DNA of 64,000 bases. Source: Clostridiales bacterium (GTDB taxonomy: Bacteria > Bacillota > Clostridia > Christensenellales > CAG-138). Of the stretch, positions 4,638-38,391 are shown in pieces; the first letter of the stretch is position 1; each line of letters begins with the position of its first letter. The notes below the pieces were generated by a model. It did no database searches and was not told where the DNA came from. It worked only from the letters and a program-made list of their open reading frames with translations. The stretch lies in the NCBI GenBank assembly GCA_004554165.1, contig SFNQ01000014.1:8520-72519 (forward strand). Direction: 5' to 3'. The position numbers and the translations under genes are program-made.

Positions 4638-4668
4638 CTTTTGCGCGGAAATCCAGACCGCATTCCCG

Positions 4669-4701
4669 CCCGCTGCCCGAAAAGGCAGCGGGTATTTTTT
4701 T
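4669..4701 (+). terminator. rho-independent terminator after the DUF975 gene
   Basis: Perfect 9-bp stem cccgctgcc / ggcagcggg with a 6-nt loop, followed by tatttttttt. Confidence 0.8.
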
Positions 4702-4714
4702 CCAAAACTTTATC

Positions 4715-4743
4715 TTGCACTTAAAATTATTTTATGTTAAAAT
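4715..4743 (+). promoter_or_regulatory. sigma-70-type promoter for marR-degV
   Basis: TTGCAC (4715-4720), 17-nt spacer, TAAAAT (4738-4743), in an AT-rich island 30 nt upstream of the marR ATG. Confidence 0.55.
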
Positions 4744-4773
4744 CTTTTTAAATTCAAAGAAACGGAGTCTCTT

Positions 4774-7859: not shown

Positions 7860-7878
7860 GCCTCTCTCCTCCCGCACC

Positions 7879-9945: not shown

Positions 9946-9990
9946 GCCGTTTTACAAACCTTTCCCACGTCCGCGCCGCCCGGAATACAG

Positions 9991-12905: not shown

Positions 12906-12920
12906 GGTGTTCTCCGCAGT

Positions 12921-13784
12921 CTATTCGATGGGTTTGAAGCCCTGGCCGTGGACCTCCGTAGCATTTGTGATAAAGAGGAAGGCTTCCTTGTCGATGGATT
13001 TGATGATGCCCAGCGTCGCGGCCACCTCCCTGCGGCGGGTGATCACCATGAGCATCTGCTTTTCCCGCCCGGTATAGCCGCCGCGCGCGGGGAGGAGGGT
13101 CACGCCGCGGTCAATCTCCGCCGCAAGCCGCCGGTTGATCTCCTCGCCCCGCTCCGTGACCACATAGATCACCTTCGCGTAGTCCACGCCCTGCATGATG
13201 CCGTCGATGACCTTCGTGGTCACAAAAATGGTTACAAAGGAGTAGAGGGCCACCTCGATGTTTCGGAACACGATAACCGCAAACACCACGACCGCAGCGT
13301 CCACAAACAGCAGCAGCGTTGAAACCGACAGGTGCGGAAAGGCGCGGTGCAGCAGCAGGCTCAGCAGGTCCGTCCCTCCCGTGGATGCGCCCCGGGCAAA
13401 CAGCAGCCCCATGCCCGCGCCCGAAAGCGCGCCGCTGAAGCAGGCCGCCAGCAGGACGTTGTTGGTGTACTGCGGCAGCACCGCGTCAAACAGGTCGATC
13501 AGCACGGACAGCAGCACCGTCACCGCCACGGTGGCCATTAGCGGGCGAAAGCCCAGCATGCGCCAGGTCAGAATCACCAGCGGCACGTTCAGAAGAAAGC
13601 TCCAGAGGCCTACGCTCACCTTGCCCCCGCAGAGATAGGCCAGCGCGGTGGAGAGGCCGGAGACGCCGCCCGGCGCAATATCGTTCGGCACGGCAAAGAC
13701 CGAGATCCCCGCCGCTACCAGCGCGCTGCCCGCAACGATTGCGCCCAGGTCAACAAGGCAGCGTTTTACACGTTCCTTCTTCAC
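12921..13784 (-). CDS. YitT-family membrane protein (DUF2179 C-terminal domain)
   Basis: GA...G.AL.A.G...F..PN.IA.GGVSGLS motif, 5-6 TM segments and a DUF2179-like tail. GTG start overlaps the upstream stop (GTGA). Confidence 0.85.
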   Translation of the reverse strand: MKKERVKRCLVDLGAIVAGSALVAAGISVFAVPNDIAPGGVSGLSTALAYLCGGKVSVGLWSFLLNVPLVILTWRMLGFRPLMATVAVTVLLSVLIDLFDAVLPQYTNNVLLAACFSGALSGAGMGLLFARGASTGGTDLLSLLLHRAFPHLSVSTLLLFVDAAVVVFAVIVFRNIEVALYSFVTIFVTTKVIDGIMQGVDYAKVIYVVTERGEEINRRLAAEIDRGVTLLPARGGYTGREKQMLMVITRRREVAATLGIIKSIDKEAFLFITNATEVHGQGFKPIE

Positions 13785-14902
13785 GGGTTCAGTCCTTTCA
13801 GCGATTCGGGCAGGAAGATTCCGTCCCTTCTGACGAGCCTGCCGTCAAACCAGATCTCGCCGCCGCCGCAGGCCGCGGTCTGAATGCAGACGATATCCAG
13901 ATGGAGCTGCGACTGGTTGCCGTTTGGCGCGGCCTTATAGCAGCAGCCCGGCGTCAGATGGAAGGAGCCGCCGATCTTTTCATCGTAAAGGGTATTGCCG
14001 ATGGCGCGGGTCACAGCGTTGTTCACGCCCAGCGCAAACTCGCCGAAGTAGCGGGCGCCCTCGTCCGCGTCCAGCAGGGCGTTGAAGCCGGCTGTGTCGC
14101 CATCGCAGACCGCCTCCACGATCCTGCCGTTTTTGACCGTAAGGCGGGGGTTTGTGAATTTTTTGCCGTAACGCATGGCGGGCGTGTTGTACTGGATGAC
14201 GCCGTTGACGCTCTCCCGCACCGGCGCGGTATAGACCTCGCCGTCGGGAATGTTGCGCTGGCCGTGGCAGGCGCGCACAGGGATATCCCGAATCGAAAAG
14301 GAGATGTCCGTGCCGGGGCCCCGGATCTCCACCCGGTCGGTCTTGAGCAGCAGCTCTACGAGCGGCTCCATGGACTTTGCCATGGCCTCGTAGTCCACCA
14401 GCGCGGCGGCAAGAAAGAATTCATAGAAATCGTCGTAGCACATGCCCGCCTTCTGCGCGTCCGCAGGGGTGGGCCAGTGCAGATAGACCCAGCGCCGCTC
14501 ATCGATCATTACGTCCCGCAGGCGTCTGCGCTCGCCCCGGTAGAGGGCCATGGCGCGGCTGTCCACCGCGGAAAGCTCCGCGTCGTTTTCGTCCACGCCG
14601 ATGTCCACATGCGCCGCCACGCTCTCCCATTTTTTCAGCTCCCAGTCCGCCTGCCTGCGGATGTTTTCCAGCACGTCCTCCGGGTGCTCCGGGTCAATGC
14701 AGGCAAGGGCCAGCCGGGCCAGCTCATCGTCCTCCAGCCGCACCACCGGGTACAGGCCCAGCTCCTTCGCCGCCCGCAGGAGCGCCTTGTTGAGCGGGTT
14801 TGCCGCCACGCCGCTGTTGATCTCAAAGATTTCTCCGCGCCGCAGGTCCAGCGACTGCGTCAGCAGCATCCGCGCAAGCCGTTCCAGCCGTTCGTCTCTC
14901 AT
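13781..14902 (-). CDS. pepS: M29-family aminopeptidase (PepS/AmpS-like)
   Basis: MRDERLERLARMLL..SL.L..GE N-terminus, and GxNIPDGEVYTAP and EFALGVN motifs. Start ATG 14902 follows RBS ggggaggtg. Confidence 0.85.
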   Translation of the reverse strand: MRDERLERLARMLLTQSLDLRRGEIFEINSGVAANPLNKALLRAAKELGLYPVVRLEDDELARLALACIDPEHPEDVLENIRRQADWELKKWESVAAHVDIGVDENDAELSAVDSRAMALYRGERRRLRDVMIDERRWVYLHWPTPADAQKAGMCYDDFYEFFLAAALVDYEAMAKSMEPLVELLLKTDRVEIRGPGTDISFSIRDIPVRACHGQRNIPDGEVYTAPVRESVNGVIQYNTPAMRYGKKFTNPRLTVKNGRIVEAVCDGDTAGFNALLDADEGARYFGEFALGVNNAVTRAIGNTLYDEKIGGSFHLTPGCCYKAAPNGNQSQLHLDIVCIQTAACGGGEIWFDGRLVRRDGIFLPESLKGLNP

Positions 14903-15192
14903 GGAACACACCTCCCCTTGTTATCCTCAGTGTACAGGAGCCGGCGTTTTTTTTCAAGGTAAACCTGCCGGTGCTTCCTTCCTCCGGCCCCGGGTTCTCC
15001 GGCTGCGCCGGTTTTTATGCGGCGGAGGGTCCGTCCCTTCTCCCCGGGGCGGGGGATCCTGTAAATCATCCCCTCTTTGGGCGGACGGGATTCACAGTTT
15101 GTTTCATTGTGCCGCCTGCTGCCGCATGGTAAGATAGATGCGTGGAAAAATCGCCATGTTTCGGCAGTATGGCGCGTCAGGAGTGAGTTTTC

Positions 15193-16230
15193 ATGGGTCT
15201 GTTCGGCTCGACCGACGTAGGCATCGATCTTGGCACCTCCAGCATCCTTGTCTATGCCAGGGGCCGGGGCATCGTTCTCAACGAGCCCTCCGTGGTGGCA
15301 GTGGAGCGCGGGGGCGGCAGGCTGGTCGCCGTCGGCGCGGAAGCGCGGCGGATTCTCGGCCGCGCGCCAGCGGACATCGCGGTCATCCGCCCCCTGCGGG
15401 ACGGGGTCATCAGCAATTTCGACGTAACCGCACGCATGATGCGCCACTTTTTCAAAAAGGTGGTGGGCAACAGCCCCTTTTACAAGCCCCGCGTGGTGGC
15501 CTGCGTCCCCTCGGGCGTAACCGAGGCGGAGAAGCGCTGCGTGGTGGAGGCCGCCCGCGAGGCGGGCGCAAAGCACTGCTATCTCATTCAGGAGCCGGTG
15601 GCCGCCGCCATCGGCGCGGGACTGGACATCAACGCGCCCTCGGGCAGCATGATCGTGGACATCGGCGGCGGTACCACGGACGTTGCGGTGCTTTCCTACG
15701 GCAGCGTGGTTGTCTCCGACTCCATCAAGTGCGCGGGCGACCGCTTTGACGCGGCGGTGCAGCGTTACATGCGCAAAAAGCATGGCCTGGTCATCGGCGA
15801 CAGCACGGCCGAGCAGATCAAGATCGAATACTGCCGCGCGCATATCGAGAAGGAGCAGGAAGTTGTGGAGATTGCGGGCCGCAGCCTCCTTTCCGGCCTG
15901 CCGGAAGCCATCCCGGTGGCAACCAACGAGCTGGTGGACGCGCTGGCCGCGCCCCTTTCGGAAATTCTCGAATGTGTGCGCGGCCTCTCGGAAAAGACGC
16001 CGCCGGAGCTCTCGGCGGACATCCGGCAAAACGGCATCTTTCTCACCGGCGGCGGCGCCCTGCTGCGCGGCCTCGATCTCTACCTTTCCGAGCGCACGGG
16101 CCTGCCCTGCCGCCTGGCGGAGGACCCCGTGGCCTGCGTCGCCATCGGCACGGGCCGCGTGCTCGAGGAGCCGTCCGTCTATGGCCGCGCAGTGTACGAT
16201 TACCGCCGCGGCGTTTACGACGAGGCCTGA
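15193..16230 (+). CDS. mreB: rod-shape-determining actin homologue MreB
   Basis: DVGIDLGTSSILVY..G.GIVLNEPSVVA, IRPLRDGVI and DIGGGTTDVAVLS motifs. Confidence 0.95.
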   Translation: MGLFGSTDVGIDLGTSSILVYARGRGIVLNEPSVVAVERGGGRLVAVGAEARRILGRAPADIAVIRPLRDGVISNFDVTARMMRHFFKKVVGNSPFYKPRVVACVPSGVTEAEKRCVVEAAREAGAKHCYLIQEPVAAAIGAGLDINAPSGSMIVDIGGGTTDVAVLSYGSVVVSDSIKCAGDRFDAAVQRYMRKKHGLVIGDSTAEQIKIEYCRAHIEKEQEVVEIAGRSLLSGLPEAIPVATNELVDALAAPLSEILECVRGLSEKTPPELSADIRQNGIFLTGGGALLRGLDLYLSERTGLPCRLAEDPVACVAIGTGRVLEEPSVYGRAVYDYRRGVYDEA

Positions 16231-16296
16231 ACCGGCGTAATTTTTACAAGTTCCGGCGAGATTTTAAGGTTTGTTCATGGCTTCGCCACAGTTGGC

Positions 16297-16305
16297 TGTT
16301 ATAAT
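16297..16305 (+). promoter_or_regulatory. extended -10 promoter element upstream of the NlpC/P60 gene
   Basis: TGtTATAAT at 16297-16305. No good -35 seen. Confidence 0.4.
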
Positions 16306-16379
16306 ACTGGCATCGGACAGGCGCCGGCGCGCTGGCTGAGCGGGCCGTGCGACTTTTGCAATTTGCGGAGGAATTGCCT

Positions 16380-18263
16380 TTGAAAATACGCATTAAGAAA
16401 TCCACAGCGCGAAAATTTCAGCGCGCGGGCCGGCAGGCGAAGAAAGTCCTGCGCAGCGCGGCGAGAACCGCAGGCCGCGGCGCATATTACGGCGTGCGCA
16501 GCGTGAGCCGTTCGCTCATGCGCCTGCCGGTCAAAACGCTCTGGATCGGACTTGGATCGCTGTCCACGGTGCTGGTGCTTGTCATCATACTGGCGCTGGC
16601 CCTGCCCGGGCGCAAGCCGGTGGTTGCCAGCGCGGAGACCGCGTCCGCCGAGTACCCCGTCGCGGCCAACGTGTTCGAAACCCCGCTTGACGAACCCGCC
16701 GCGAATGAAGCCGGCGTTCCCCCCGTCTCCGACGGCCAGCAATCCGCTCCGGTCAGCTCTGGCGGCGAGGAGCAGCCCGGCGGCGCGGAGGCGGAAAACG
16801 CAGCAGCCCCGCAGGACAGTCCCGGCAATCCCGGCGGCGCGGAAGATGGCACGCTTGCGCTGACCGGCTTTACAGCGCTCTCCGACGGCGACGAAAACGA
16901 TTATGTGCCCGAAATCCAGGCCCGCCTGATGGAGCTGGGCTATATGGATTCCGACGAGCCCACCCGGCGCTACGGCAACATCACCAGGCACGCCATTGAA
17001 ACCTTCCAGGCGCACAACACGCTGGATTCGGACGGCGTTTGCGGCCTCACCACCTATACGCTGCTCATGTCCGATTCAGCAAAAGAATACGTCATGCAGC
17101 TGGGCGATTCGGGCGAAGCTGTAGAATCCGTGCAGCAGCGCCTTTACGAGCTCGGTTATATTACGAGCAAATCAAACGTCACCGGCACCTTCGGCGAAAA
17201 GACCCAGGCCGCTGTTATGGAGTTTCAGAAGAAGAACAAGCTCAGCGACGACGGCAAGGTGGGCGACAAAACGCTGGAAACCCTTTTCTCCGAGGACCCG
17301 GTTTCCAAGTGCTTCTCCGTGGGCGATAAGGACGAGGTCATCGCCACCGTCCAGAAACGCCTGAAGAAGCTGGGCTACTTCACCGGCAGCGCCTCCGGCG
17401 AATATACCCGGGCGACGGCCACCGCCATTAAGAAGTTCCAGTCCGTCAACGGCCTTGTGGTGGACGGTACGCTGGGACCCACCACGAAGGATGCCATCCT
17501 TTCCAGCGGCGCGCAGGCCAACGTGATCCAGCTGGGCGACAAGGGCAGCGACGTTGAGAAGATTCAGAAACGCCTCGCGGAGCTCAACTATATCCGCTCC
17601 GCAAACGCCACCGGCTACTTCGGCGAGATTACCCAGGAGGCCGTGATCGCTTTCCAGAAGCGCAACAGTCTCCATGCCGACGGCAAGGTGGGCACCGGTA
17701 CCTATGACTCGCTCTTCTCCAGCGGCGCGAAGAAGGCCAGTTCTTCCTCAAGCTCGTCCGGCAGTTCCTCCGGCTCCGGCTCGTCGTCGGGTTCCTCCGG
17801 TTCCTCCTCGTCGGGCAGCTCCTCCGGCTCCTCCTCTTCGGGCGGCTCCTCCGGCTCCTCCTCGTCGTCCAGCGGCAAGGGCGTGGAAAAGCTCATCGAA
17901 ATCGCGGAGAGCAAGCTGGGCTGCAAGTACGTCAGCGGCGCGAAGGGAGCCAGCACCTTTGACTGCTCCGGCTTTGTCTACTACTGTCTGCGCAACGCGG
18001 GCGTGAGCGTCAAGTACATGACCTCCATCGCCTGGCGCTCCACCGGCCAGTTCAAGAAGATCACGAGCCTGCGGGATTGCGTGCGCGGCGATATCCTCGT
18101 GTTCTCCGGCTCCTCCATGGCCAAGGGCCACGTGGGCATCTATCTGGGCAGCGGCAAGATGATCGACGCCAGCTCCTCCGCAGGCTGCGTCCGCGTCACG
18201 AGCACCGTGCTCTCCGGCAGCTACTGGCCCAGCCACTTCCTCATGGCGTACCGCGTCTTCTGA
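16380..18263 (+). CDS. secreted or membrane-anchored cell-wall hydrolase: four PG_binding_1 repeats, Ser/Gly linker, NlpC/P60 domain
   Basis: Repeated ..V..LQ.RL.ELGY.......G.FG..T..AV..FQ..N.L..DG..G..T modules, a 45-aa S/G run, and the NlpC/P60 catalytic text FDCSGFVYYCL...GHVGIYLG.GKMIDA. Start is uncertain (GTG 16347 in the ORF track); TTG 16380 sits 7 nt after ggagga. Confidence 0.85.
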   Translation: MKIRIKKSTARKFQRAGRQAKKVLRSAARTAGRGAYYGVRSVSRSLMRLPVKTLWIGLGSLSTVLVLVIILALALPGRKPVVASAETASAEYPVAANVFETPLDEPAANEAGVPPVSDGQQSAPVSSGGEEQPGGAEAENAAAPQDSPGNPGGAEDGTLALTGFTALSDGDENDYVPEIQARLMELGYMDSDEPTRRYGNITRHAIETFQAHNTLDSDGVCGLTTYTLLMSDSAKEYVMQLGDSGEAVESVQQRLYELGYITSKSNVTGTFGEKTQAAVMEFQKKNKLSDDGKVGDKTLETLFSEDPVSKCFSVGDKDEVIATVQKRLKKLGYFTGSASGEYTRATATAIKKFQSVNGLVVDGTLGPTTKDAILSSGAQANVIQLGDKGSDVEKIQKRLAELNYIRSANATGYFGEITQEAVIAFQKRNSLHADGKVGTGTYDSLFSSGAKKASSSSSSSGSSSGSGSSSGSSGSSSSGSSSGSSSSGGSSGSSSSSSGKGVEKLIEIAESKLGCKYVSGAKGASTFDCSGFVYYCLRNAGVSVKYMTSIAWRSTGQFKKITSLRDCVRGDILVFSGSSMAKGHVGIYLGSGKMIDASSSAGCVRVTSTVLSGSYWPSHFLMAYRVF

Positions 18264-18287
18264 TTTCGGGCGCTCTCCGGTATGATC

Positions 18288-18330
18288 GCGCGGAGAACCT
18301 GCAAAAAACGGTTCTCCGCGCTTTCTCGTT
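18288..18330 (+). terminator. rho-independent terminator after the NlpC/P60 gene
   Basis: Perfect 12-bp stem gcgcggagaacc / ggttctccgcgc, followed by tttctcgtt. Confidence 0.8.
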
Positions 18331-18350
18331 GCCGCTCCCCGGTCTTTTTT

Positions 18351-18381
18351 GTTGACATACCCCTCGTCCCTTGGCGTATAC
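18351..18381 (+). promoter_or_regulatory. candidate promoter for the L,D-transpeptidase gene
   Basis: TTGACA (18351-18356) and TATACT (18376-18381), but the 19-nt spacer is long. Confidence 0.4.
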
Positions 18382-18587
18382 TATAGGTACCCTCGGCATA
18401 CAGGGGGCAGTGCGGCTGCGGAGAAAGCGGACGCAGGGCTGTTACCTGTTACCTTTCGCCGGTGCCGAAGTATCCCCGCGTTTGGAAGCGGAGCAGGCGC
18501 GCCGCCTTTTCCCGGAGGTCCGTACCCCCCCCCGCCGGACGCCGCGAGGGCGCCGCAGTCCCAAGAATTTCTGTTCGGAGGAACCCG

Positions 18588-19763
18588 ATGAAAAAATGCC
18601 TTTCTCTTCTGCTTGCGCTGCTGTTTGTTTCCGCGGCGCTGGCGCTCCCCCGCAGCGCGCAGGCAAAGGACGAGCTCAAGAACACCGATCCCGACAAATA
18701 CTACATCGTGCTCGACCTCAACAATCAGATCATTACGGTCTATGAAAAGGATGCGGCCGGCGAGTACACCCGCGTTGTACGCCGCTTCATCTGCTCCACC
18801 GGCCGCGACAAGCCCAGCGAGGGCTCGGCCATAGACGACAGCACGCCCACGCCCACCGGCATCTGGAAAATCGGCGGGCGGGAGCGCTTTGGCAAGTTCG
18901 CAAACTTTTCCGAGTACGCCCGCTACTGGACCCAGCTTGTGGAGGACATCTATTTCCACTCCATCATGTTCAGCAAGCGGGATTTGACCGCCATCAAGAG
19001 CGGCCCCTACGGCTCTCTGGGCGGCAGCGTTTCCCACGGCTGCGTCCGCCTGCTGGTGGAGGACGCCAAATGGCTCTACTACTATGCCTGCCCCGGTACC
19101 ACCGTGGAGGTGACAAAGTCCCTGCCGACGGACCGGTCGCTGAAGGCCGCGCTGCGCAACCAGCGCAATGAAACAAAGTTTAAGGATTATAAGGCGCTGC
19201 AGGAAAACTTCTACGACAACGAAGAGCTCCCCAACGATAAGGCCTATGTTACCCACGAGAGCGCGGTTCTGCGCAAGGAAAGCAAAACCTCCGCCAAGGC
19301 CATCCACAGCCTGACGCTGGGCGAGGAGCTGGAAATCCTGCTCTACAACGACGCCTGGGTCAAGGTGCGCGACGGGGATGGCAAGGAGGGGTATGTCTAC
19401 CGCGGCTTCATCAGCCTGACGCAGGGGCAGACCGACACCCGCGCGGACGCAAACGTCATCAAATCCACCACCTGGATGTACAGCGGGAAGAACGCCGCGG
19501 TGGAAAACCGTATCTGCAAGGTGCCCACCGACACCCCTGTGCGGGTGAGCGAAATCGACGAATCTGCGGGCTTTGCAAAGATTACCTATTATACGGAAAC
19601 CGGCTATATTCAGACGAAGTATCTCAAGACCGCCTACGGCATCGACCTTGGCGACGGGAACGCGCCGGTTATCACGCCCTCGCCGAAGCCCACAAAAACG
19701 CCGGACGAAACCGCTACGCCGGAGCCCTCGGCAAGCGCAACGCCGGCCCCCGCCGCGGGCTGA
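18588..19763 (+). CDS. secreted L,D-transpeptidase (YkuD domain) with C-terminal SH3b-like repeats
   Basis: Signal peptide MKKCLSLLLALLFVSAALALPRSAQA, the YkuD catalytic motif SHGCVRL, two SH3b-like segments (..WVKVRDGDGKEGYVYRGFI.., ..FAKITYYTETGYIQTKYL) and a P/T-rich tail. RBS ggagga lies before ATG 18588. Confidence 0.85.
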   Translation: MKKCLSLLLALLFVSAALALPRSAQAKDELKNTDPDKYYIVLDLNNQIITVYEKDAAGEYTRVVRRFICSTGRDKPSEGSAIDDSTPTPTGIWKIGGRERFGKFANFSEYARYWTQLVEDIYFHSIMFSKRDLTAIKSGPYGSLGGSVSHGCVRLLVEDAKWLYYYACPGTTVEVTKSLPTDRSLKAALRNQRNETKFKDYKALQENFYDNEELPNDKAYVTHESAVLRKESKTSAKAIHSLTLGEELEILLYNDAWVKVRDGDGKEGYVYRGFISLTQGQTDTRADANVIKSTTWMYSGKNAAVENRICKVPTDTPVRVSEIDESAGFAKITYYTETGYIQTKYLKTAYGIDLGDGNAPVITPSPKPTKTPDETATPEPSASATPAPAAG

Positions 19764-19811
19764 GAGTCCCCGTTCCGCCGCTTGCCGGAGAAAAACCCCG
19801 GAAACAATTGC

Positions 19812-19840
19812 AGCCCCGGAGCAATCCTGCTCCGGGGCCG
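19812..19840. terminator. hairpin between convergent genes
   Basis: 9-bp stem ccccggagc / gctccgggg. No clear U-tract on either strand. Confidence 0.4.
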
Positions 19841-19858
19841 TTGCGTTGACAGCGGCGG

Positions 19859-20566
19859 CTATTCGTGGAATTGATAGACGTTGGGCACGCTCTCCCTGCC
19901 AAACGTTTGAATTGCCATACGATACATGGCTTTTGCGTGAATCCTGTCGTGCCAGAGAAAGCGCCGCAGAACCTTTCTCAGCGTCCATTCCTCGCCATAA
20001 CTGCCGGAATATACCCGGTTGGCCAAAAAATCCTCGTGCTGTTCCAGGCTTTCAAAGCCACGGCTTCTGGATGCAAAAATCGTGCCGTCGCAATCGGCAG
20101 CAACGCCGATCTCTCCGAAATAATAGCTGTTGACGTTTTTTGTATGGGTATACATTTCCTCTGCGGTGCGGGGGCGCTTCCCATAAAAGGTTTCCCTTTC
20201 GGCAAGACAGCTTTCCCCCTTGTCCGGAATTGCTTCATACAGCGCCAGAAAATCCCTTGCCGAGCGTAGGGCCAGTTTCTTCAGGCCGTAATACTCGGCC
20301 GCGTCCAGCGGCGCCTTTTCCGTCTCGAACAGCACGTCCGAATCCGCATCGCAAACCGCCAGTCCGGAGGACTTTTCCTGAACAATCACAATTTCGCAGG
20401 AGGTCTGGACGGACTCGCCCCTCCAGCGCAGATAGGACCGGACCTCCCCTTCCATTTTGCGCAGGGCAATTACTCTGCTTTCCCCTCTTGTAAACGCGCC
20501 GATCAGATTCTCGGCATAGAGGAGGCTGTCCTCCCCGTTGTGCTCCCAAACGCAGGCAATCCTCAT
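19859..20566 (-). CDS. hypothetical protein with a DinB-like C-terminal helix motif
   Basis: Clean ORF with RBS ggtggagag. The C-terminal WTLRKVLRRFLWHDRIHAKAM resembles the DinB/YfiT-superfamily His motif. No confident family assignment. Confidence 0.5.
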   Translation of the reverse strand: MRIACVWEHNGEDSLLYAENLIGAFTRGESRVIALRKMEGEVRSYLRWRGESVQTSCEIVIVQEKSSGLAVCDADSDVLFETEKAPLDAAEYYGLKKLALRSARDFLALYEAIPDKGESCLAERETFYGKRPRTAEEMYTHTKNVNSYYFGEIGVAADCDGTIFASRSRGFESLEQHEDFLANRVYSGSYGEEWTLRKVLRRFLWHDRIHAKAMYRMAIQTFGRESVPNVYQFHE

Positions 20567-20871
20567 GTCTCTCCACCCCTGTCCGCTCTGGGGCGGCCTC
20601 CTCAGGCTTTCGCCCCCCGGGCGGGCCGGTCTCTCCCAACAGAAAAGCGGGCTGGCCGCAGTCCTTGCAATCCGTCGCCCGCATTTCGGCCAATCACAAC
20701 GAATCTTTCTCCAGAAGCTCCGGCCTCGTCTGCCTGCGCATCAGAGCGCTCTGCTCCCCGGCGTTCCTGCTTTCGGAGTCCTTTCTTCGGAAGCGGGCAG
20801 GCCCGCAGGGACAAACCCCACATCCCCGGCGGAATATGGTGCTCGCCTCCGGACCGGCGGATGTCTCCCGT

Positions 20872-21804
20872 TCAGTCCGCCCCTTCGCCGCCGTCCAGCA
20901 GCAGGTCTTCCGGCGTTTTCCCGGCCAAAATCTCGCCAAGAGCGGCAACGCAGGCCTGCGCCGCGGCTTCGTCGTCCACGGACGCCCCGGAGGGCAGAAT
21001 CCCCGGATGCTCCGCAGCAAGCCCGGCAAGCGCAGCGTCGCTGCCAACGGTGAAAATCTCAAAATCGTCCCGCTCCTGCGCGATCATTGCGGCGGCAAGC
21101 TCCGCCGCCTGCGCCGGGCTTTCCACAAAGGCCGCGTCCACCATGCCGGGATAGAACTCCTCCAGCCGTTCCGCAATCCAGGCGGCAAGCGTCCCCTTGC
21201 CCGGAGCAAAAACGCCCTTGTTCAGTATGCGGCCCCCGTCCACCGCCGCGGTCCAGGCGGCATACGCCGCGCCGTCCGTGCGTTCAAATACGCCGAACAT
21301 GCGCACGGGCGTATCATGAGGCGGGTAGGCAATGGCAGCCTCCAGCGCCGCCTCCGCAGTCGCGGGCGCAGCGACCTTCCAGCCGATTTCCGTCACCGCG
21401 TCCGGCAGCTCCGCGCCCGTGCGATTGTAGGCCAGCACGGGAATGCCCCGCTCCAGCAGCGCGGCAATCTGCGCCGTATCCTCCGGCGGCGCGGCAAGGT
21501 ACAGCACTGCAAGATCCACCTCCGCCATTCCCGAAAGCTCCTGCAGCGAGGTTTCCATCAGGTCTATGCCGGCGACGCTGTCAAGGGCCGCCCGGAAGGC
21601 CTCGTCCGCGCCGTCCATCACGCAGGCCACCAGCGGCGGCAGCGGCGGCTCCGTGGGTTCGGGCGCGGCGGAGGGCGCTGCGGTTGCAGCCGTATTCTCC
21701 GGCGGAATGTAAATATCCTGCCGCGCAATCATATAGGCCGCGCAGAGCGCTACGATCAGTGTAACAACAAAAATGACCAGTGCAATCCATTTTTTCGTGC
21801 TCAT
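20872..21804 (-). CDS. membrane-anchored hypothetical protein with a periplasmic-binding-protein-like (LacI/RbsB-fold) ectodomain
   Basis: MSTKKWIALVIFVVTLIVALCAAYMI anchor and a P/A/T linker, then alternating beta-alpha text (VACVMDG...DLAVLYLAAP...GIPVLAYNRTG...). Start ATG 21804 lies 7 nt after an extended -10 element. Confidence 0.5.
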   Translation of the reverse strand: MSTKKWIALVIFVVTLIVALCAAYMIARQDIYIPPENTAATAAPSAAPEPTEPPLPPLVACVMDGADEAFRAALDSVAGIDLMETSLQELSGMAEVDLAVLYLAAPPEDTAQIAALLERGIPVLAYNRTGAELPDAVTEIGWKVAAPATAEAALEAAIAYPPHDTPVRMFGVFERTDGAAYAAWTAAVDGGRILNKGVFAPGKGTLAAWIAERLEEFYPGMVDAAFVESPAQAAELAAAMIAQERDDFEIFTVGSDAALAGLAAEHPGILPSGASVDDEAAAQACVAALGEILAGKTPEDLLLDGGEGAD

Positions 21805-21810
21805 AAAAGT

Positions 21811-21819
21811 ATTATACCA
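21811..21819 (-). promoter_or_regulatory. extended -10 element (TGgTATAAT) giving a probable leaderless transcript
   Basis: Minus strand reads ctgTGgTATAATactttt ATG. The hexamer ends 6 nt before the A of ATG 21804. Confidence 0.5.
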
Positions 21820-22265
21820 CAGCTCCTCCATGGAGTGTTATACGAGATTTGTCCTTTCCGGGCAGGAGAAGCGGCGCGCCCCCTCTTCTCCGGCGCGATA
21901 AGCAAGGCCCGCTGCCTCCGGGCCGCCGGTTCCGAAGCCGCAGGTGGCTTTGGCGGCATACGTTCCCCCGCGTCTGCCGGAGCCGCTCTCTCCCCGCAGG
22001 CAGCCTCTGCCGCTTCCGGCGAACGCCTCCCGCAGAGTCAGCTTTCCTGCACGCGCCGTCTGCAAAACTGCCTTTTCCCAGGCCGCGATTCCTGAGGTTT
22101 TTCCGTGCCGGCCGCATATGCGCCGGAAGGGATCGCCTGTTTCCGGCCGGCTTTCCCCGCCTTTCGACGCCAGGAAGCGTTTGGAAGCTCTTTTCCCTCC
22201 TGCATACCGAAAAAAGTTGATTGACAGCCAAACGCCCGCCGTTGCCGGCGGACGTTGTGATGCTG

Positions 22266-23536
22266 TTATGCGCTCTGGCGCGGTTTTTTCGCCGCCTTGG
22301 GCTTTTCGCTCTTGGCGGGCTTCTCCTTTTTGGGCCGGGGCTCCGCGCCTTCGCTGAGTTCGGGCGGCGAAACCTTCTCGATGGCGTCCTTTGTGATGCG
22401 GCATGCCGTAATGTTCTCCTTCGAGGGGATATCGAACATCACGTCCAGCATCACGTCCTCCAGTATGGCCCGCAGGCCGCGGGCGCCGGTCTTGCGCTCG
22501 ATGGCCTTTTTGGCTACGGCGCGCAGGGCCTCCTCATCGAAGGTAAGCTCCACGCCGTCCATTTCGAACAGGCGCCTGTACTGGCGGGTCAGGGCGTTCT
22601 TCGGCTCGGTGAGAATGCGCACGAGCGCGTCCTCGTCCAGATTTTCCAGCGTGACGATCACCGGCATGCGGCCCACAAACTCCGGGATCAGGCCATACTT
22701 GAGCAGGTCCTCGGGGAGAATGTTCTTGAGCGTCTGGCCGATGTCCTTTTCCACGTTGGACTGAACGTCCGCGCCAAAGCCCATGAGCTTTTGGCCGATG
22801 CGCTTTTCGATGATCTTGTCGATCCCGGAAAAAGCGCCGCCGCAGATGAACAGGATGTTGGTCGTGTCAATCTGGATGAACTCCTGGTGCGGGTGCTTTC
22901 TGCCGCCCTGCGGAGGCACGGAGGCCACGGTACCCTCCAGAATCTTGAGCAGCGCCTGCTGTACGCCCTCGCCGGACACGTCGCGGGTGATGGAGACGTT
23001 CTCGCTCTTTCTGGCGATCTTATCCACCTCGTCGATATAGATGATGCCCTTTTCCGCCTTCTGCACGTCGTAGTCCGCGGCCTGAATGAGCTTGAGCAGA
23101 ATGTTCTCCACGTCCTCGCCCACATAGCCCGCTTCGGTGAGGCTTGTGGCGTCCGCCACGGCAAAGGGTACGTTCAGTATTTTTGCCAGCGTCTGCGCCA
23201 GCATCGTCTTGCCGCAGCCCGTTGGCCCCAGCATGATGATGTTGCTCTTTTGCAGTTCAACGTCGTCCTTCTGGTCGCCCGCATTGATCCGCGCTTTGCG
23301 GCCTGCTGCCCGATGACGTATTCGTTCAGTGTATCGAGAATCTCCTGGGGCTTTGGCACGTCCTGAAGATCGACGGCTTCGGCCTCGTTGTCCTCCTCGA
23401 TGATCTCATGGCAGAGCTCGACGCACTCGTTGCAGATGTAAACGCCGGGGCCCGCGATGATGCGCTGTACCTCCTCCTGAGTCTTGCCGCAGAAGGTGCA
23501 GCGGATGTTCAGCTTGTCGTCATTCTTCGTTGCCAT
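22266..23536 (-). pseudogene. clpX: ClpX ATP-dependent protease ATPase subunit, interrupted (frame change plus missing conserved segment)
   Basis: The 5' ORF has the Zn-finger CTFCGK...CNEC and runs to [12 protein letters not shown]. The AAA+ body resumes in another frame at [36 protein letters not shown]... The segment (x)ALxVAVYNHYK, present between these in E. coli and B. subtilis ClpX, is absent. Confidence 0.8.
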
Positions 23537-23585: not shown

Positions 23586-24170
23586 TCAGCGCCGCGCCGG
23601 GATGATCTCATCCACGAGGCCGTAGGCCTTCGCCTGCTCGGCCGTCATGAAATTGTCGCGCTCGGTGTCGGCTGCAACCTTGTCAAGCGGCTGTCCCGTG
23701 CGCTCGGCGAGAATCTCGTTCAGGCGCTTTTTGATGCGCAGGATCTGCTCCACCTGAATGTTCATGTCGGTCGCCTGACCGCGCGCGCCGCCGCTGGGCT
23801 GATGGATCATGATCTCCGCGTTGGGCAGCGCCCTGCGCTTGCCCTTTGCGCCCGCAGCCAGCAGGAACGCGCCCATGGAAGCGGCCAGCCCCACGCAGAT
23901 GGTCGATACCTCGCATTTAATGTACTGCATGGTATCGTAAATGGCAAGACCCGCGCTGACAGAGCCGCCGGGACTGTTGATGTAGAGGAAGATATCCCTG
24001 TCGGGATCGTCCGCCTCCAGAAACAGCATCTGCGCCACAATGATGTTGGCCGTATCGTCGTCCACCTCGCCGCCCAGAAAGATGATGCGATCCTTGAGCA
24101 GGCGGGAATAGATATCATAGGAGCGTTCGCCAAGGTTGGTCTGCTCCACGACCATGGGGACCAGATTCAT
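23586..24170 (-). CDS. clpP: ATP-dependent Clp protease proteolytic subunit
   Basis: [39 protein letters not shown] and [17 protein letters not shown] motifs. RBS aaaggag. Confidence 0.97.
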
Positions 24171-24182: not shown

Positions 24183-25502
24183 TTATTCCTCGGTTTTTTC
24201 GGGTTCCGGCTTTTTCTTCTCCGGCACCAGCTGCACGGAGGAGACGATCAGCTCCACGGTCTTTTCCGCAACCTTGCGGTCGGTGAGATACTCGCGGTCG
24301 TCGTCGCTGATCTGCTTTTTGAAGTCCTCTGCCGGCATGCCGCTGTTTTCGGCGTATTCGGCGATCACGGCCTCCAGCTCCTCGTCCGAGCAGGAAACAT
24401 TCTCCGCCTTGCCCACAGCCTCGATCACAAGCTGCATCTTCACGCGGCCCTTCGCTTCCTCGCGGTAGCTTTCCTTGAGCGCGTTGAGATCCGTGCCCAC
24501 ATATTTGCAGTAATCCTCCAGCGTAATGCCGCTCATCTGCAGGCGGTAGCCCATGTCCCGCAGCATGTAGTTGGCCTGCCGCTCGATCATGCACTCGGGA
24601 ATCTCAACCTCCGCCCCGTCGCACACGGCCTTGATGGCCAGATTCTCGATGGCGGTCTTTTCGTTCTTTGCCGCCTGCTCCTCCATGGCTCTGCGCTTGT
24701 CGGCGATGAGCTCGGCCAGCGTATCAAACTCGGAGACATCCTTTGCAAACTCGTCGTCCAGCGCGGGCAGCTCCTTGACCTGTACGCCGTGGAGCTTCAC
24801 GGCAAAGACCGCGTCCTTGCCGGCCAGGTTTTCCGCATGGTACTCGGCCGGGAAGGTCACCTGAATGTCGCGCTCCTCGCCCACGGTCATGCCCACGAGC
24901 TGCTCTTCAAAGCCGGGGATGAAGGTGTTGGAGCCGATGACGAGGGTCTGCTCGGTGGCTGTGCCGCCGTCAAACCGGACGCCGTCCACGCTGCCGCTGT
25001 AATCGATGATGACGCGGTCGCCGTTCTCCACAGGGCGCTCGACATCCACAAAGCGCGCGTTCTTTTCGCGCTCCTGCTCGATGACGGCGTCAACGTCCGC
25101 ATCCTCCACAGTATACGTTGGCTTTTCAACTTCTATACCCTTGTAGGCGCCGAGCTTCACCTCGGGCTTGAGCTGCACCTCGGCGGTAAAGACCAGGCCC
25201 TCTTCCCGGCTGATCTTTTCGATATCGATGGAGGGCTTGTCCACGGCGATGAAGCCGTTCTCCTCCAGCGCCTCGTCGTAGGCCTCGCCCCAGCAGAGCT
25301 CGAAGGCGTCCTCGTAAAACACACCCTCGCCGTACATGCTCTCGATGACCTTGCGGGGCGCCTTGCCCTTGCGGAAGCCTGCGATGTTGTAATGCCTGCC
25401 GTTTTTGACGTAGGCCTGCTGCAACGCTGCGCCAAAGGTATCCGCGTCCACCTCGATGGTCAGTTTGACCCTGTCATGCTCCAGTTTCTCGATGCTTGCC
25501 AT
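24183..25502 (-). CDS. tig: trigger factor
   Basis: N-terminal ribosome-binding text GFRKGKAPRKVIE, a central FKBP-type PPIase region and a C-terminal arm. Order tig-clpP-clpX is conserved. Confidence 0.95.
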   Translation of the reverse strand: MASIEKLEHDRVKLTIEVDADTFGAALQQAYVKNGRHYNIAGFRKGKAPRKVIESMYGEGVFYEDAFELCWGEAYDEALEENGFIAVDKPSIDIEKISREEGLVFTAEVQLKPEVKLGAYKGIEVEKPTYTVEDADVDAVIEQEREKNARFVDVERPVENGDRVIIDYSGSVDGVRFDGGTATEQTLVIGSNTFIPGFEEQLVGMTVGEERDIQVTFPAEYHAENLAGKDAVFAVKLHGVQVKELPALDDEFAKDVSEFDTLAELIADKRRAMEEQAAKNEKTAIENLAIKAVCDGAEVEIPECMIERQANYMLRDMGYRLQMSGITLEDYCKYVGTDLNALKESYREEAKGRVKMQLVIEAVGKAENVSCSDEELEAVIAEYAENSGMPAEDFKKQISDDDREYLTDRKVAEKTVELIVSSVQLVPEKKKPEPEKTEE

Positions 25503-25557: not shown

Positions 25558-25586
25558 ATCATACCACAGCTTTCCGCGCTTGACAA
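25558..25586 (-). promoter_or_regulatory. tig promoter (minus strand)
   Basis: Minus strand reads TTGTCA, 17 nt, TATGAT, with TGg immediately upstream of the -10 (extended -10). Confidence 0.6.
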
Positions 25587-25608
25587 CACCTTTCCTTATC
25601 GATATAAT
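25580..25608 (+). promoter_or_regulatory. thrS promoter
   Basis: Perfect consensus: TTGACA (25580-25585), 17-nt spacer, TATAAT (25603-25608). Confidence 0.8.
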
Positions 25609-25614
25609 GATTTT

Positions 25615-25830
25615 TAACGTGGATTGACGTGGAAACAGTACCGTCCACTCGCCGTTTTCCGATCAGAGAGCCGCGCGTTTTGCTGAGAGCGCGGCAGGAA
25701 AGCCGGACGCGAAGACCGCCCACCGACCGCGCCGGGCCCTGCCCGTTATTGCAGGAAATGAGTTAGAAATCAGGGTGGAACCGCGATGCCCCTCGCCCCT
25801 CGAAGTGTGTTCGAGGGGCGTGTTTTTTTG
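25615..25830 (+). promoter_or_regulatory. T-box riboswitch leader (tRNA-Thr-responsive) with terminator
   Basis: Conserved T-box sequence aaatcagggtggaaccgcg (25767-25785). Terminator gcccctcgaa/ttcgaggggc (25795-25819) followed by gtgttttttt. AGAGAG GA-motif near 25664. Candidate specifier ACC (Thr) at 25715-25717 (tentative). Sits directly upstream of thrS. Confidence 0.85.
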
Positions 25831-25885
25831 CCCGACCCCGCGCCGGGTTAACGTTTCAGAGCTTTAATTAAGGAGGAAATGCAGC

Positions 25886-27835: not shown

Positions 27836-27866
27836 GAATACGACAGGCTTTGAAAATCACGCAGGA

Positions 27867-27897
27867 GGCCGGCGCCACAGGCGCCGGCCTTTGTCTG
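27867..27897 (+). terminator. rho-independent terminator after thrS
   Basis: 10-bp stem ggccggcgcc / ggcgccggcc, 3-nt loop, then tttgtctgtc. Confidence 0.7.
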
Positions 27898-28041
27898 TCG
27901 AAAAACCCCGGGGTTGATAAGGGGCCGCAGCCCCCCGCCTTCCCGGGCTTTTCGGCAGACTGCGGCGGATTGCGCTTTTTTGAGCGGCGCGGGGAGACTT
28001 CCTGCACCGTGGGCGCGGACTGCCGCCCTGCCGTGAAAGCC
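27897..28041 (-). repeat. copy C (inverted orientation) of the intergenic repeat family
   Basis: The reverse complement contains gctttcacgg ... ccgaaaagcccggg ... ggggctgcggcccct(t)atcaaccccggggtt(t)ttcgaca. The last 42 nt or so are near-identical to 56231-56269. Confidence 0.65.
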
Positions 28042-28370
28042 CCGATCCACAGGCGATTTTCTGCTCCGGCGCACATGCCGCCGGGCCGCCCGCCGCAAGG
28101 GATCGCAGCCGCTCGTCGGCGCAGGGACAGCCTTCGTCGCAGCTGCGGCGCATCCCCCGGAAGGTTTCGCGCAATGCTTCCTTCATTTTGCAGCCGTAGT
28201 GAATTTTTTCCTGCATAATTTTCCTGAATTTTAGAAGTTTTGCCCAAATTCTCTCGTTTTTCGCAGTTTTTCTGCTTTCATTATGCAAAATTTTGTATGG
28301 AGGCAGAAAATATTTTTTCTTGTCAGGGGGGAAATAGTGTTGTAAGATGCTTTTCGTATATTTTATATAA

Positions 28371-29723
<1,353 letters not shown>

Positions 29724-29842
29724 GCCTGCGGAGCACCCCTTTCTTTCCCCCCTACGGAGCCGCCGGGAAGCAGGATTTGCCCCGGCGGTTCCTGCTGCCC
29801 GGCGCGCCGCTTTCCGGCGGAACGCTGTCGCGGACAAAACAT

Positions 29843-29882
29843 AAAAAAGAGAGGCTGGCATTCCCTCCGCCTCTCTCTTTTC
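29843..29882. terminator. bidirectional terminator between gdhA and the thioesterase gene
   Basis: 8-bp stem agagaggc / gcctctct, flanked by an A-run upstream and a T-run downstream. Confidence 0.7.
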
Positions 29883-29939
29883 ATACCCAATACGTCACAT
29901 GTCTGCAGCCCGCTCCACAGCTTTGTCCCTGCCTGCGCG

Positions 29940-30353
29940 CTAGCTCTCAAGGTGCGCGCCGCTGATGCTGACGGCGGCAACCGCCGTACCGAGATCGTCC
30001 GTAATGCGGATCTCATAGAAGCAGGTATGCCTGCCGTCCTTGAGCAGACAGCTTTCTCCATAGAGCACGCGGCCCTTTGGCGCGCGAAGGTAGCTGACCT
30101 GCGCAACGCTGGTCACCGTTGTGGGCTGGCGGAAATTCGTCGCAACCGCGAACACAAAGTCCGCAAGCGTAAAAATCACGCCGCCCATGGCATGGCCGTA
30201 GGCGTTCCTGTGCCGCTCGTCCAGCTTCAGGCTGCACTTGGCGTAGCGCTCTCCCACGGCGTCGATCTCGATCCCCGTAAGCGCCACCGCATAGCGGTCC
30301 GCGGAAAAGATCCGCCTGGCTTCCTCCAGCGCGCTGCTGTCGCGAGCTTCCAT
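29940..30353 (-). CDS. PaaI-family (hotdog-fold) thioesterase
   Basis: N..G.AMGGVIFTLADFVFAVA core motif, size about 137 aa, typical PaaI/4HBT layout. Confidence 0.8.
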   Translation of the reverse strand: MEARDSSALEEARRIFSADRYAVALTGIEIDAVGERYAKCSLKLDERHRNAYGHAMGGVIFTLADFVFAVATNFRQPTTVTSVAQVSYLRAPKGRVLYGESCLLKDGRHTCFYEIRITDDLGTAVAAVSISGAHLES

Positions 30354-30367
30354 GGCGGCCTCCCCGC

Positions 30368-31492
30368 CTACAGCGTTTTGACCCAGCAGCGGCGGCGCTT
30401 ATGCTGCTCGGTTTCAAAAAATTTCCACTGGGACTGCACCTTGGTGTTCAACTCCAGCATGGGGCCTGTTTCCGCATAGCGGAAGCCTGCCGCCAGAACC
30501 TTCTTCAGCATCGTGTCCATGATGACGGAATTGACGCCCGAGCCCTGCAAATCCGGCCGCACCGCAATGAGCAGCATATCCACGGTATCGTTTTTGCCCT
30601 TGAGCGCCCGGAGCAGCGGAATCCAGCCAAAGGGGAACATGCGCCCGCGGTTCTTCTGCTGCGCCCGCTCCAGCGAGGGACAGCAGATGCCAAAGGCCAC
30701 CATCTCGTTTTGCTCGTTGTAAACAAAGGAGGTGGTGCGGCGGTCCAGCATGGGCAAAAACTCGCTCACATACTTGTCCGTCTGCGCCTCGGTCATGGGT
30801 ACGACGCCAAACAGGGCCTTGTAGGTTTCGTTCCAGAGATCGAACATCTCCCGCGCGAGCGCCTTGATGGGCTTGTCCAGCGAGCCGAGGTCGATCACCC
30901 GGAGCCGTTTGCGGCGCTGAACCGTTTCCGCAATGCGCGTCAGCCGCTCAACGGGCGCGTCCGGCAGCGTCAGGCGGCACTCGATCCAGTCCACCTCTTT
31001 TTCATATCCGCGCCGCTCCATCTGGCGGACGTAGTAGGGATAGTTGTAGTAGGTGATGAACAGGCTCAGCCGGTCAAAGCCCTCCACAAGCATGCCCTCG
31101 CGGTCCATGTCCGAAAATCCCAGCGGCCCGTGGGAGTGGGTGCAGCCCTTTTCTCTGCCCCAGGCCTCCACCGCGTCGAACAGCGCGTCCACCACCTCGT
31201 CGTCGTCGATGAAGTCAATGTGCGTGATGGTCAGGTAGTTCCTGCCGAACTTCTCGTTGGCCCTGCGGTTGTGGATGCCCGCGATCCGGCCGACGATCTG
31301 CCCCTCGCGCAGCGCGAGGAAGCACCTGGCGTCCGAGTAGGCAAAGGCCGGGTTCTTGTCCCGGATCATATCGTCCACCTGGCTTGCCAGCATGTCCGGC
31401 ACATAGTAGGGGTTGTTTCTGTAGAGTTGCAGCGGAAATTCCATAAAGCGCACGATGTCGCGCCGCTTCACCGCTTCCTGAATTGTTACCAA
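30368..31492 (-). CDS. GNAT/FemAB-fold acyltransferase-like protein (function unknown)
   Basis: 374-aa ORF. The N-terminus IVRFMEFPLQLYRNNPYYVPDM......D.....NPAF.......FLA..EG.IVGRIAGI matches a widespread two-domain N-acyltransferase-like family. TTG start. Confidence 0.55.
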   Translation of the reverse strand: MVTIQEAVKRRDIVRFMEFPLQLYRNNPYYVPDMLASQVDDMIRDKNPAFAYSDARCFLALREGQIVGRIAGIHNRRANEKFGRNYLTITHIDFIDDDEVVDALFDAVEAWGREKGCTHSHGPLGFSDMDREGMLVEGFDRLSLFITYYNYPYYVRQMERRGYEKEVDWIECRLTLPDAPVERLTRIAETVQRRKRLRVIDLGSLDKPIKALAREMFDLWNETYKALFGVVPMTEAQTDKYVSEFLPMLDRRTTSFVYNEQNEMVAFGICCPSLERAQQKNRGRMFPFGWIPLLRALKGKNDTVDMLLIAVRPDLQGSGVNSVIMDTMLKKVLAAGFRYAETGPMLELNTKVQSQWKFFETEQHKRRRCWVKTL

Positions 31493-31528
31493 AGCTCCCG
31501 TTCTCCCATCCCTGAAAATTCTTGCGCA

Positions 31529-32491
31529 CTACTGCTGGCGCGGCGGCTCTTTGCCCTCCCCCTTGCGGCGCTTTTTGCGGCTCCGCCGGACCAGAAGGAC
31601 GATGCCGAGTACGATCGCCGCCACAACGATGCCGGGCAGCAGAACGTTGGCCAGCACAATGCCGATGGCGCCGATGCCGTTCAGCAGGAAGCGCCAGCCG
31701 TTCTGGAAGCCGTCGCTCATGCGGCGGCCGATATCCGACGCGCTCCAAAGCTCAATCAGCGTACCCTCGCCCGCAACAGCCGTCTTTTGAACGGCCTGCA
31801 GGGAGAGCTCCACGGTGGCGTAAGCGACCTGATGATCCCAAAGATTGATACGGCCCTGATAGCTCTCGATCTGTTCGCGCACGGCAGCAAGCTGTTCGCG
31901 CACGAGCAGCATCTCCTCGATGGTGGTGCAGTTGCCCAGCAGCACAAGCAGCTGCTCCTCCTCGGCTCTGGCCGCGGAAAGGCGCGCAGCGATGTCGTAG
32001 TAGTCCATGGTGATCTCGTCGCTCTCGAGGCGGCAGCTGTCCGTTTTGCCCAGGCCGGACAGGCGCTCCATCAGCGTCTCCAGCTTTTCCGCAGGCACCT
32101 TGAGCGTCGCTGAGGCATAGCCGTCGCCGTCGCCGTTGGCGCTCTGATAGGAATCCGCCACATATCCGCCAAGCTGCGCGCAGGCCTCCTGCGCCGCCAC
32201 AAGCGCGTCCGCCGGCGAATCCGCCGTGATGGTCAGATAGGCCGTGTAGATAATTTTCTGTCCATAGGGGCTTGCCTCCCCTGCGCCGGTGTTGTCCAAA
32301 GGCGCGGCCGCGGGGGCAGCCGTCCCCTTGTTGGACACGGTATCGGCCAGAAAATCGCCGTCGTAGCTCTCCATCGCCATCATATCGGATGCGGCGGCGC
32401 TGTTTGAAACGGCGCTGACAGCCGCGGCGGCGCAGCCGTTCAGCAGCAATGCCAGAACCAGACCCAGTGCAATGAGGCTCGTTTTTTTCAT
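31529..32491 (-). CDS. DUF4349-domain lipoprotein
   Basis: Lipobox MKKTSLIALGLVLALLLNGC, the DUF4349 coiled-coil core (..TLKVPAEKLETLMERLSGLG......ESDEIT.DYYDI.ARL.....EE.QLL.LL........L.VR.QL..VR..IE...G) and a C-terminal TM. Start ATG 32491 follows ggaggt. Confidence 0.75.
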   Translation of the reverse strand: MKKTSLIALGLVLALLLNGCAAAAVSAVSNSAAASDMMAMESYDGDFLADTVSNKGTAAPAAAPLDNTGAGEASPYGQKIIYTAYLTITADSPADALVAAQEACAQLGGYVADSYQSANGDGDGYASATLKVPAEKLETLMERLSGLGKTDSCRLESDEITMDYYDIAARLSAARAEEEQLLVLLGNCTTIEEMLLVREQLAAVREQIESYQGRINLWDHQVAYATVELSLQAVQKTAVAGEGTLIELWSASDIGRRMSDGFQNGWRFLLNGIGAIGIVLANVLLPGIVVAAIVLGIVLLVRRSRKKRRKGEGKEPPRQQ

Positions 32492-33067
32492 ACATACCTC
32501 CGTTGTTGTGGCTGATGCAACTATATCATATTCTCTCGAAAAAGGGAAGATGGGTAGAATTTGCATCTCTTCATAAATACATACCCGGCAGGCCCTCCGC
32601 AGGTTGCAAAAACCGCAAAAATTGCCTGTGTCCACCTTGCGCCGGATGCGGAAAGCCCGATGGCGGCGCCGGAGAATGTGGAAAGCCGGGGAACAGAATG
32701 TCAAGCCGAACCTGACAGAGGCGCAGTGCGTGCTTTTCCATCCGTTCCTTCCGGGACCAGAACGGGAACGAGAAGCAGTACGTACAGGCGGAGGGCGACC
32801 GCGTAATCCGGAGAAACAACCCGGAGCGGGCAAAGGCGATGCTGAGCAGCGAGCAGGAGCGATACGAGAACAAAAAGAAAACCCCGTCCGGCAAGGAAAT
32901 TGTTCGGACGCTCGTCTCCGGAGTGCATCCGAAAGGACGCGACCCGAAACCTGGACGCTTTCGCGGGGAAGAACGGGCATGTGCGGACGCTGCTCACCGC
33001 CGGATATGAGAACAGGGCCGCGGCGGACAATCCGGTCCCCGCAGCCCTGTAACAGCGTTTTGCCCCT

Positions 33068-35693: not shown

Positions 35694-35743
35694 CGTTCAT
35701 CCCACCCCATTATGAAAAGAATCAGTCCATTTGAATGAATCAT

Positions 35744-35772
35744 AATATACAGGTTATTCATCAAAATGTCAA
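35744..35772 (-). promoter_or_regulatory. promoter for the acyltransferase / acyl-CoA ligase operon
   Basis: Minus strand reads TTGACA, 17 nt, TATATT, in an AT-rich island upstream of ATG 35693. Confidence 0.6.
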
Positions 35773-35982
35773 ATTAACGTCACAATTTATATTTTTTTCT
35801 GATATGGGCTTTGTCCGGGCGGCGGCGTGCCGGATGCTTTTGGCGAGTCGGCCGGGGGCCGTTTTTTCCGGCCCTGGAACGGGGGCAGTCCCAAAGCGCC
35901 GGCAGAGCGCAGCAGGGGGACGGCCCGTGCTCCGTCCCCCTGTGGTTCCCTTTCCCGTCTTGCCTGCCGGAGCGCGCGGCGG

Positions 35983-38391
<2,409 letters not shown>

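Follow-up and report, generated by a model that had tools for sequence, protein, structure and literature searches.

The window, by which we mean the whole 64,000-nt stretch of Clostridiales DNA that was analyzed, contained on its minus strand the genes tig, clpP, and clpX (Table 1), in an order that was the same in all relatives. Both tig and clpP had the lengths found in all relatives and contained no internal stops, and they were thus intact, as an earlier note on this sequence had judged them to be. An identical ClpP protein, the sole member of its cluster, was found on 144 contigs. The clpX gene, in contrast to that of relatives, was shortened and divided between two reading frames.

Several other features of the window were recorded. 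The leader region of thrS carried a perfect promoter match, a terminator-like hairpin, and a T-box match that was not reported by a default Rfam scan because its score was under the gathering score. Between thrS and the glutamate dehydrogenase gene (gdh), the spacer was hypervariable across strains, with deletions of 104, 135, and 189 nt in different contigs. Two ORFs, of 1008 and 580 aa, had no Pfam match at E ≤ 1e-5; the longer of the two had a third-position GC of 0.71, below that of its neighbors, and was preceded by ~1 kb without a confident ORF.

Table 1. Coordinates of features in the window and of disrupted clpX alleles on conspecific contigs
Feature	Sequence	Position	Strand	Remarks
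clpX pseudogene	Window	22266..23536	−	1,271 nt versus 1,305 nt in relatives
N-terminal ORF, 120 aa	Window	23174..23536	−	81 native and 39 out-of-frame residues
C4 zinc ribbon (ClpX zinc-binding domain)	Window	23393..23512	−	CTFC and CNEC motifs read in the sequence
Deletion junction	Window	23290..23292	−	GCG microhomology (3 nt) common to both flanks
AAA+ body	Window	22266..23291	−	−1 frame, RINAGDQ... to TAA at 22266-22268
Earliest start codon in AAA+ frame	Window	23232..23234	−	Met113 by intact numbering
clpP	Window	23586..24170	−	Intact, 194 aa
tig (trigger factor)	Window	24183..25502	−	Intact, 439 aa
Promoter-like site upstream of tig	Window	25586-25558		
thrS leader region	Window	25580-25885	+	
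Promoter match in thrS leader	Window	25580-25608	+	Perfect TTGACA-17-TATAAT match
T-box match in thrS leader	Window	25615-25803		66 bits, E = 2e-14; Rfam gathering score 93
Terminator-like hairpin in thrS leader	Window	25794-25820		
thrS/glutamate dehydrogenase spacer	Window	27836-28370		Hypervariable across strains
4HBT-type thioesterase gene	Window	29940-30353	−	Premature stop at codon 138 of 152
ORF, 1008 aa	Window	7627-10653	+	
ORF, 580 aa	Window	1217-2959	+	
Second private deletion, 17 nt	Window	32933-32934		Non-coding spacer, AMP-binding gene/DUF4349 gene; relatives carry TCAGGCCCCATCCGCGG
clpX allele Q20*	L096 (GAIO21-1 SAMN11097978 / ERZ28574627)	1-1349		CAG to TAG
clpX allele E51*	L095 (ERZ27233060, 51.7 kb)	2824-4128		GAG to TAG
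clpX allele K360*	L099 (ERZ27233287)	3706-5010		AAG to TAG, upstream of the GARGLR sensor-2 motif

Three-frame translation of the minus strand started at the ATG at 23536 and read normally to Lys81 (23296-23294). This native part of the 120-aa ORF comprised the zinc-binding domain and linker, with GQQAAK as its last residues, and was followed by an out-of-frame stretch that began RGSMRATRR and ended at a TGA stop (23174-23176). Compared to NCBIfam profiles, the N-terminal fragment corresponded to positions 3 to 88 of TIGR00382, with 82.5 bits that did not reach the cut-off of 370.75, and the AAA+ body corresponded to positions 100 to 408 of 418 in NF003745, with 546 bits (540 to 546 bits for the body alone); profile positions ~89 to 99 were absent from the body, as was a native start. 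The Walker A motif, GYVG pore-1 loop, Walker B motif, ClpP-docking loop, and sensor-2 GARGLR motif were undamaged in the −1 frame, and the motifs from Walker A to sensor-2 were identical to those of the intact protein P0121. Pfam family PF06689 (zf-C4_ClpX) was recorded for homologous intact proteins. Of the features that define ClpX, the locus retained the zinc-binding domain, the AAA+ motifs, and the operon context adjacent to clpP, and it lacked the first AAA+ helix and one continuous ORF of ~420 aa scoring above the curated cut-off, having two ORFs in different frames instead. Translation and profiles together upheld the interruption that the earlier note had described, with a zinc-ribbon N terminus running into nonsense and an AAA+ body resuming in another frame, and the interval assigned to it (23174-23320) spans both the junction and the out-of-frame tail.

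Alignment of the DNA with 99%-identical conspecific contigs revealed that exactly 34 nt were missing from the window clpX in a single gap, outside of which the gene was 99.2 to 99.4% identical to intact conspecific clpX. A loss of about 34 nt had been estimated from the window sequence alone, as had a 1-nt change of frame, which translation identified as −1. On the minus strand, the missing bases read GCGCGCTGGCCGTCGCCGTATACAACCATTACAA in relatives, and the junction in the window read GCAAAGCGCGGATCAATG. The BLAST alignments of 13 relatives all stopped at 23290 and resumed at 23292; they overlapped by 3 nt, and the breakpoints therefore share the GCG microhomology. The left breakpoint falls within a palindrome, AGCGCGCGCT, of intact relatives. 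Since the deletion amounts to codons 82 to 93 (RALAVAVYNHYK) minus 2 nt, the frame was shifted by −1; the earlier figure of about 11 absent codons was a fair estimate, with 12 codons affected. A cluster of mutations at the junction was also considered, on account of a seemingly private single-nucleotide polymorphism (SNP) 9 nt away at 23283, and was dropped when the same SNP was found in the intact contig L098 and in L099.

When the two protein pieces were joined and used as a query, 434-aa ClpX proteins (P0001 and P0121) were recovered that were identical to the query save for a 12-residue insertion. Residues encoded by the deleted codons aligned without gaps to residues 86 to 97 of the 424-residue ClpX chain 8e91_A, and P0121 aligned gap-free through the deleted region to 6sfw_O (E = 3.9e-186). 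The deleted codons cover the LAVAVYNHYKR region, which was identical in the four solved ClpX chains of the alignment, and the claim that a conserved helix is missing was thereby substantiated. In ClpX, this segment is the first helix in the large AAA+ domain and comes right after the VIGQ motif that contacts adenine. Because the deleted helix is invariant in the aligned solved ClpX structures, no functional reading of the locus survives.

A functional arrangement of the two pieces, either by a programmed −1 frameshift or with the zinc-binding and ATPase parts as separate proteins of a two-piece ClpX, is hardly credible. The AAA+ body does lie in the −1 frame, and a single-tRNA slip at GCA AAG would yield ...GQQAAK-A-RINAG..., but the junction (GCC GCA AAG CGC GGA) contains no X XXY YYZ slippery heptamer, and the frameshifted product would still be without the invariant LAVAVYNHYK helix. 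The two-frame layout was found in no relative, all full-length relatives being single-frame. A separate ATPase initiated at Met113 would be a 322-aa product (ORF 22266..23234) that begins within strand β1, just before Walker A; no clear Shine-Dalgarno sequence was found in the 20 nt upstream of this ATG, and the upstream ORF stops downstream of it, which rules out termination-reinitiation coupling. Both the split gene and recoding were rejected on the position of the start, the loss of the helix, the lack of a heptamer, and the absence of any relative with this layout.

The deletion was private to the window. Among ~15 billion proteins, its frameshift products (P0135, 120 aa, and P0128, 322 aa) were found on a single NCBI contig of 82,555 nt, evidently the deposited record from which the window comes, and Logan was absent among their sources, although Logan had assembled the same strain from run SRR9218194. 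Intact P0121, in contrast, was present on 103 contigs from NCBI, ENA, and Logan, with other full-length variants on ~20 more. The 34-nt gap was restricted to the window when 13, and later more than 25, conspecific contigs were compared. A junction pattern with degenerate SNP positions had no matches in JGI metagenome contigs, among which this species is probably not represented. The remaining 1,271 nt of the window clpX carried no further damage, and the gene thus displayed neither the shared lesion nor the secondary decay of a fixed pseudogene.

Only two private indels of at least 5 nt were detected in the window, the 34-nt deletion and a 17-nt deletion in a non-coding spacer, when 21 kb was set against ten conspecific contigs and 18.5 kb against another; across this ~38 kb of comparison, no further coding indels were found. 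A 76-aa ORF called at the 17-nt site in some contigs had ATG, CTG, or CCG as its start codon among contigs and differed by 11 nonsynonymous versus 3 synonymous changes, indicating no coding constraint.

The closest match to the window was contig L110 (ENA ERZ27309622 k141_42659; 85,014 nt), an independent MEGAHIT assembly that spans the entire window by coordinate arithmetic from its recorded range. Over 9,289 flanking bases (6,213 nt on the upstream and 3,076 nt on the downstream side of the junction), L110 had 0 mismatches to the window, whereas other conspecific contigs were 0.1 to 1.5% divergent, with a lowest count of 12 differences in 7,586 nt. L110 carries the 34 nt, with RALAVAVYNHYK restored, and encodes a 434-aa ClpX. 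The 34-nt deletion is therefore all that separates the window from an intact same-strain assembly, and it is either an extremely recent segregating mutation or an artefact confined to one dataset. Two Logan contigs of run SRR9218194 were 100% identical to the window over 11,966 nt (10,894-22,859) and 9,097 nt (28,965-38,061), and the second of them (L121) reproduced the 17-nt deletion exactly. Matching base for base, the Logan contigs establish that the strain of the window is real and otherwise faithfully assembled. Logan contigs ended in clpX at 22859 (SRR9218194) and in gdh at 28964/28965 (four runs), probably because these conserved genes have k-mers in common with other species, and for this reason no independent contig was seen to cross the clpX junction.

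These comparisons bear on stable lineage-level loss of ClpX, perhaps offset by a further clpX copy or an alternative ClpP partner, which we regard as very unlikely. Loss or mutation of clpX occurs in some bacteria. Spontaneous clpX mutations were selected in Staphylococcus aureus isolates from chronic infections and in macrophage-passaged lines (PMC11265673), which lends such a loss some plausibility, and a second Clp ATPase could lie outside the 64-kb window. Against it stand the zero divergence from the intact same-strain contig, the undamaged state of the rest of clpX, and the other conspecific contigs, which have full-length clpX or different, independent lesions; within the 64-kb window, no other Clp ATPase was found. 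Of the three causes offered in the earlier note (real inactivation, strain-level polymorphism, or an assembly or consensus error), an old or lineage-wide inactivation was accordingly ruled out, and a private recent allele or an artefact remained.

That the deletion arose during assembly, library preparation, or consensus calling, the clpX of the organism being intact, is the main alternative, though a less likely one. Chimeric or PCR-deleted fragments, a polishing step, or a long-read consensus error in the deposited metagenome-assembled genome could each have produced it, and template switching in vitro could be favored by the GC-rich palindrome in which the left breakpoint lies. The intact clpX of L110 amid 9.3 kb of mismatch-free flanks, the confinement of the deletion-specific proteins to one record, and the more than 100 contigs with intact P0121 are all in keeping with such an origin; if L110 was built from the same reads, the deletion would be at best a co-existing allele, and chimeric library molecules would be a possible source. 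However, the Logan contigs reproduced the rest of the window, its 17-nt private indel included, and the lack of any other coding indel in ~38 kb indicates that the assembly is not error-prone. An error-prone assembly was ruled out as a candidate in its own right, the one other private indel being non-coding and reproduced by Logan. Since the flanks share 3 nt only, a de Bruijn (k-mer) graph should not be able to form a false join without reads containing the junction, judging by the principles on which such assemblers work. Other alleles that disrupt clpX are also present in the same species. A related genome restoring the 34 nt had been named in advance as a sign of assembly error; such a genome was found in L110, and its intact clpX fits a polymorphic population equally well.

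With moderate confidence, we favor a recent segregating loss-of-function allele of clpX in the sampled gut population, captured by one assembly. That a same-strain assembly, identical in all other respects, has an intact clpX makes the event extremely recent. We infer the presence of the allele in cells, and not just in a library or assembly, from the otherwise exact assembly and from the other clpX-disrupting alleles in the species. A single private 34-bp deletion would have inactivated this clpX allele, possibly through replication slippage or microhomology-mediated repair, either of which would fit the 3-nt GCG microhomology and the left breakpoint in a (CG)n palindrome. If expressed, the allele would give a 120-aa product in which the zinc-binding domain and linker are followed by 39 residues of nonsense; with the ATPase body untranslated, no ClpX unfoldase would be formed, and ClpP would be left without its ClpX partner. 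What interrupts this clpX is a private microhomology deletion of 34 bp and not an evolved feature.

Disruptions of clpX were also found elsewhere in the species. The ClpX cluster included a 375-aa form (P0123) and a 359-aa form (P0028), and the contigs encoding them bear independent nonsense mutations. When 21 genes were compared on up to 28 distinct conspecific contigs, private disruptions were confined to clpX, which was disrupted on 4 contigs and intact on 24, counts that derive from metagenome assemblies of related samples, some of which were probably assembled more than once. The four disruptive alleles (the window deletion and the three nonsense alleles in Table 1) sit on different strain backgrounds. 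No private disruption was found in ~330 gene-contig pairs of the other genes, where the only other premature stop was the shared one at codon 138 of the thioesterase gene; this stop was common to 10 of 24 conspecific contigs and is therefore a common C-terminal truncation polymorphism. Among ~17 distinct contigs retrieved through neighboring genes, a restriction that makes selection of contigs independent of clpX status, 2 had a disrupted clpX (P of ~0.002 versus 0 of ~330, a rough hand estimate).

All three nonsense alleles are TAG. Use of TAG as a sense codon was rejected as an explanation, as TAG terminates 7 of the 40 genes in the window, and TAG alleles are unsurprising because, in the GC-rich clpX, the codons one change away from a stop are most often CAG, GAG, and AAG. 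The contig with K360* (L099) differed from its nearest relative (L098) by 5 SNPs in 7,059 nt, of which 3 were in clpX and all protein-changing (A97T, A186D, and K360*). From the sequences, this looks like multiple hits or relaxed selection in that lineage, or local assembly noise.

The host species is an uncultured member of the Clostridia and probably a resident of the pig gut. Among the genome-contig matches listed, the best was 83% identical, and the placement thus goes no further than Clostridia, Oscillospiraceae-like. The relatives labeled GAIO21-1_SAMN1109xxxx have their probable source in the time-series metagenomes of post-weaning pigs by Gaio et al. 2021, a link that we infer from the label. 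In that study, Illumina reads were coassembled per animal with MEGAHIT (PMC8549361). The distribution of alleles is suggestive of either recurrent selection or a relaxed constraint acting on clpX in this species. As a tentative proposal, clpX may be a hot spot of recurrent, recent, and independent disruptions, with clpP and the flanks untouched, owing to parallel within-host selection for loss or remodeling of ClpX. The pressure would be, for example, antibiotic, phage, or stress, and the window deletion would be one instance.

The engineered protein ClpX-ΔN is E. coli ClpX without its zinc-binding domain. The conspecific alleles Q20* (L096) and E51* (L095) resemble it, in that a 375-aa ORF starting at a GTG (Val59) remains. 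The window allele, unlike ClpX-ΔN, loses the first helix of the ATPase module and should be null rather than an active, domain-deleted enzyme. The locus is otherwise like canonical ClpX (TIGR00382/NF003745; 6sfw_O, 9ndj_F, 8e91_A, and 3hws_A) in its operon, zinc ribbon, Walker A and B motifs, GYVG loop, docking loop, and sensor-2 arginine, and it differs from these in lacking 34 nt (residues 86 to 97 of 8e91_A), in being frameshifted, and in having no single ORF.

Selected clpX changes, in this case missense, were also reported in heat-adapted lines of Legionella pneumophila (PMC10537758). As in L. pneumophila and S. aureus, clpX appears here as a recurrent mutational target, with four independent disruptive alleles in one gut species; those cases concern cultured isolates with phenotypes, whereas the alleles described here are known from metagenome assemblies alone. 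The lesion itself adds nothing new; spontaneous clpX mutations under selection are already documented in other bacteria.

In this record, clpX should be annotated as a pseudogene or frameshifted allele. The window offers no basis for inferring a ClpX-less species, because ClpXP is clearly encoded in this species, in intact and highly conserved form. A real allele would be a natural null mutation in a central unfoldase, and as a matching contig carries the intact gene, the two would form an isogenic pair, useful though unsurprising. If read-level data confirm the excess of clpX disruptions, the species would exemplify parallel adaptive inactivation of a gene within a population of commensals.
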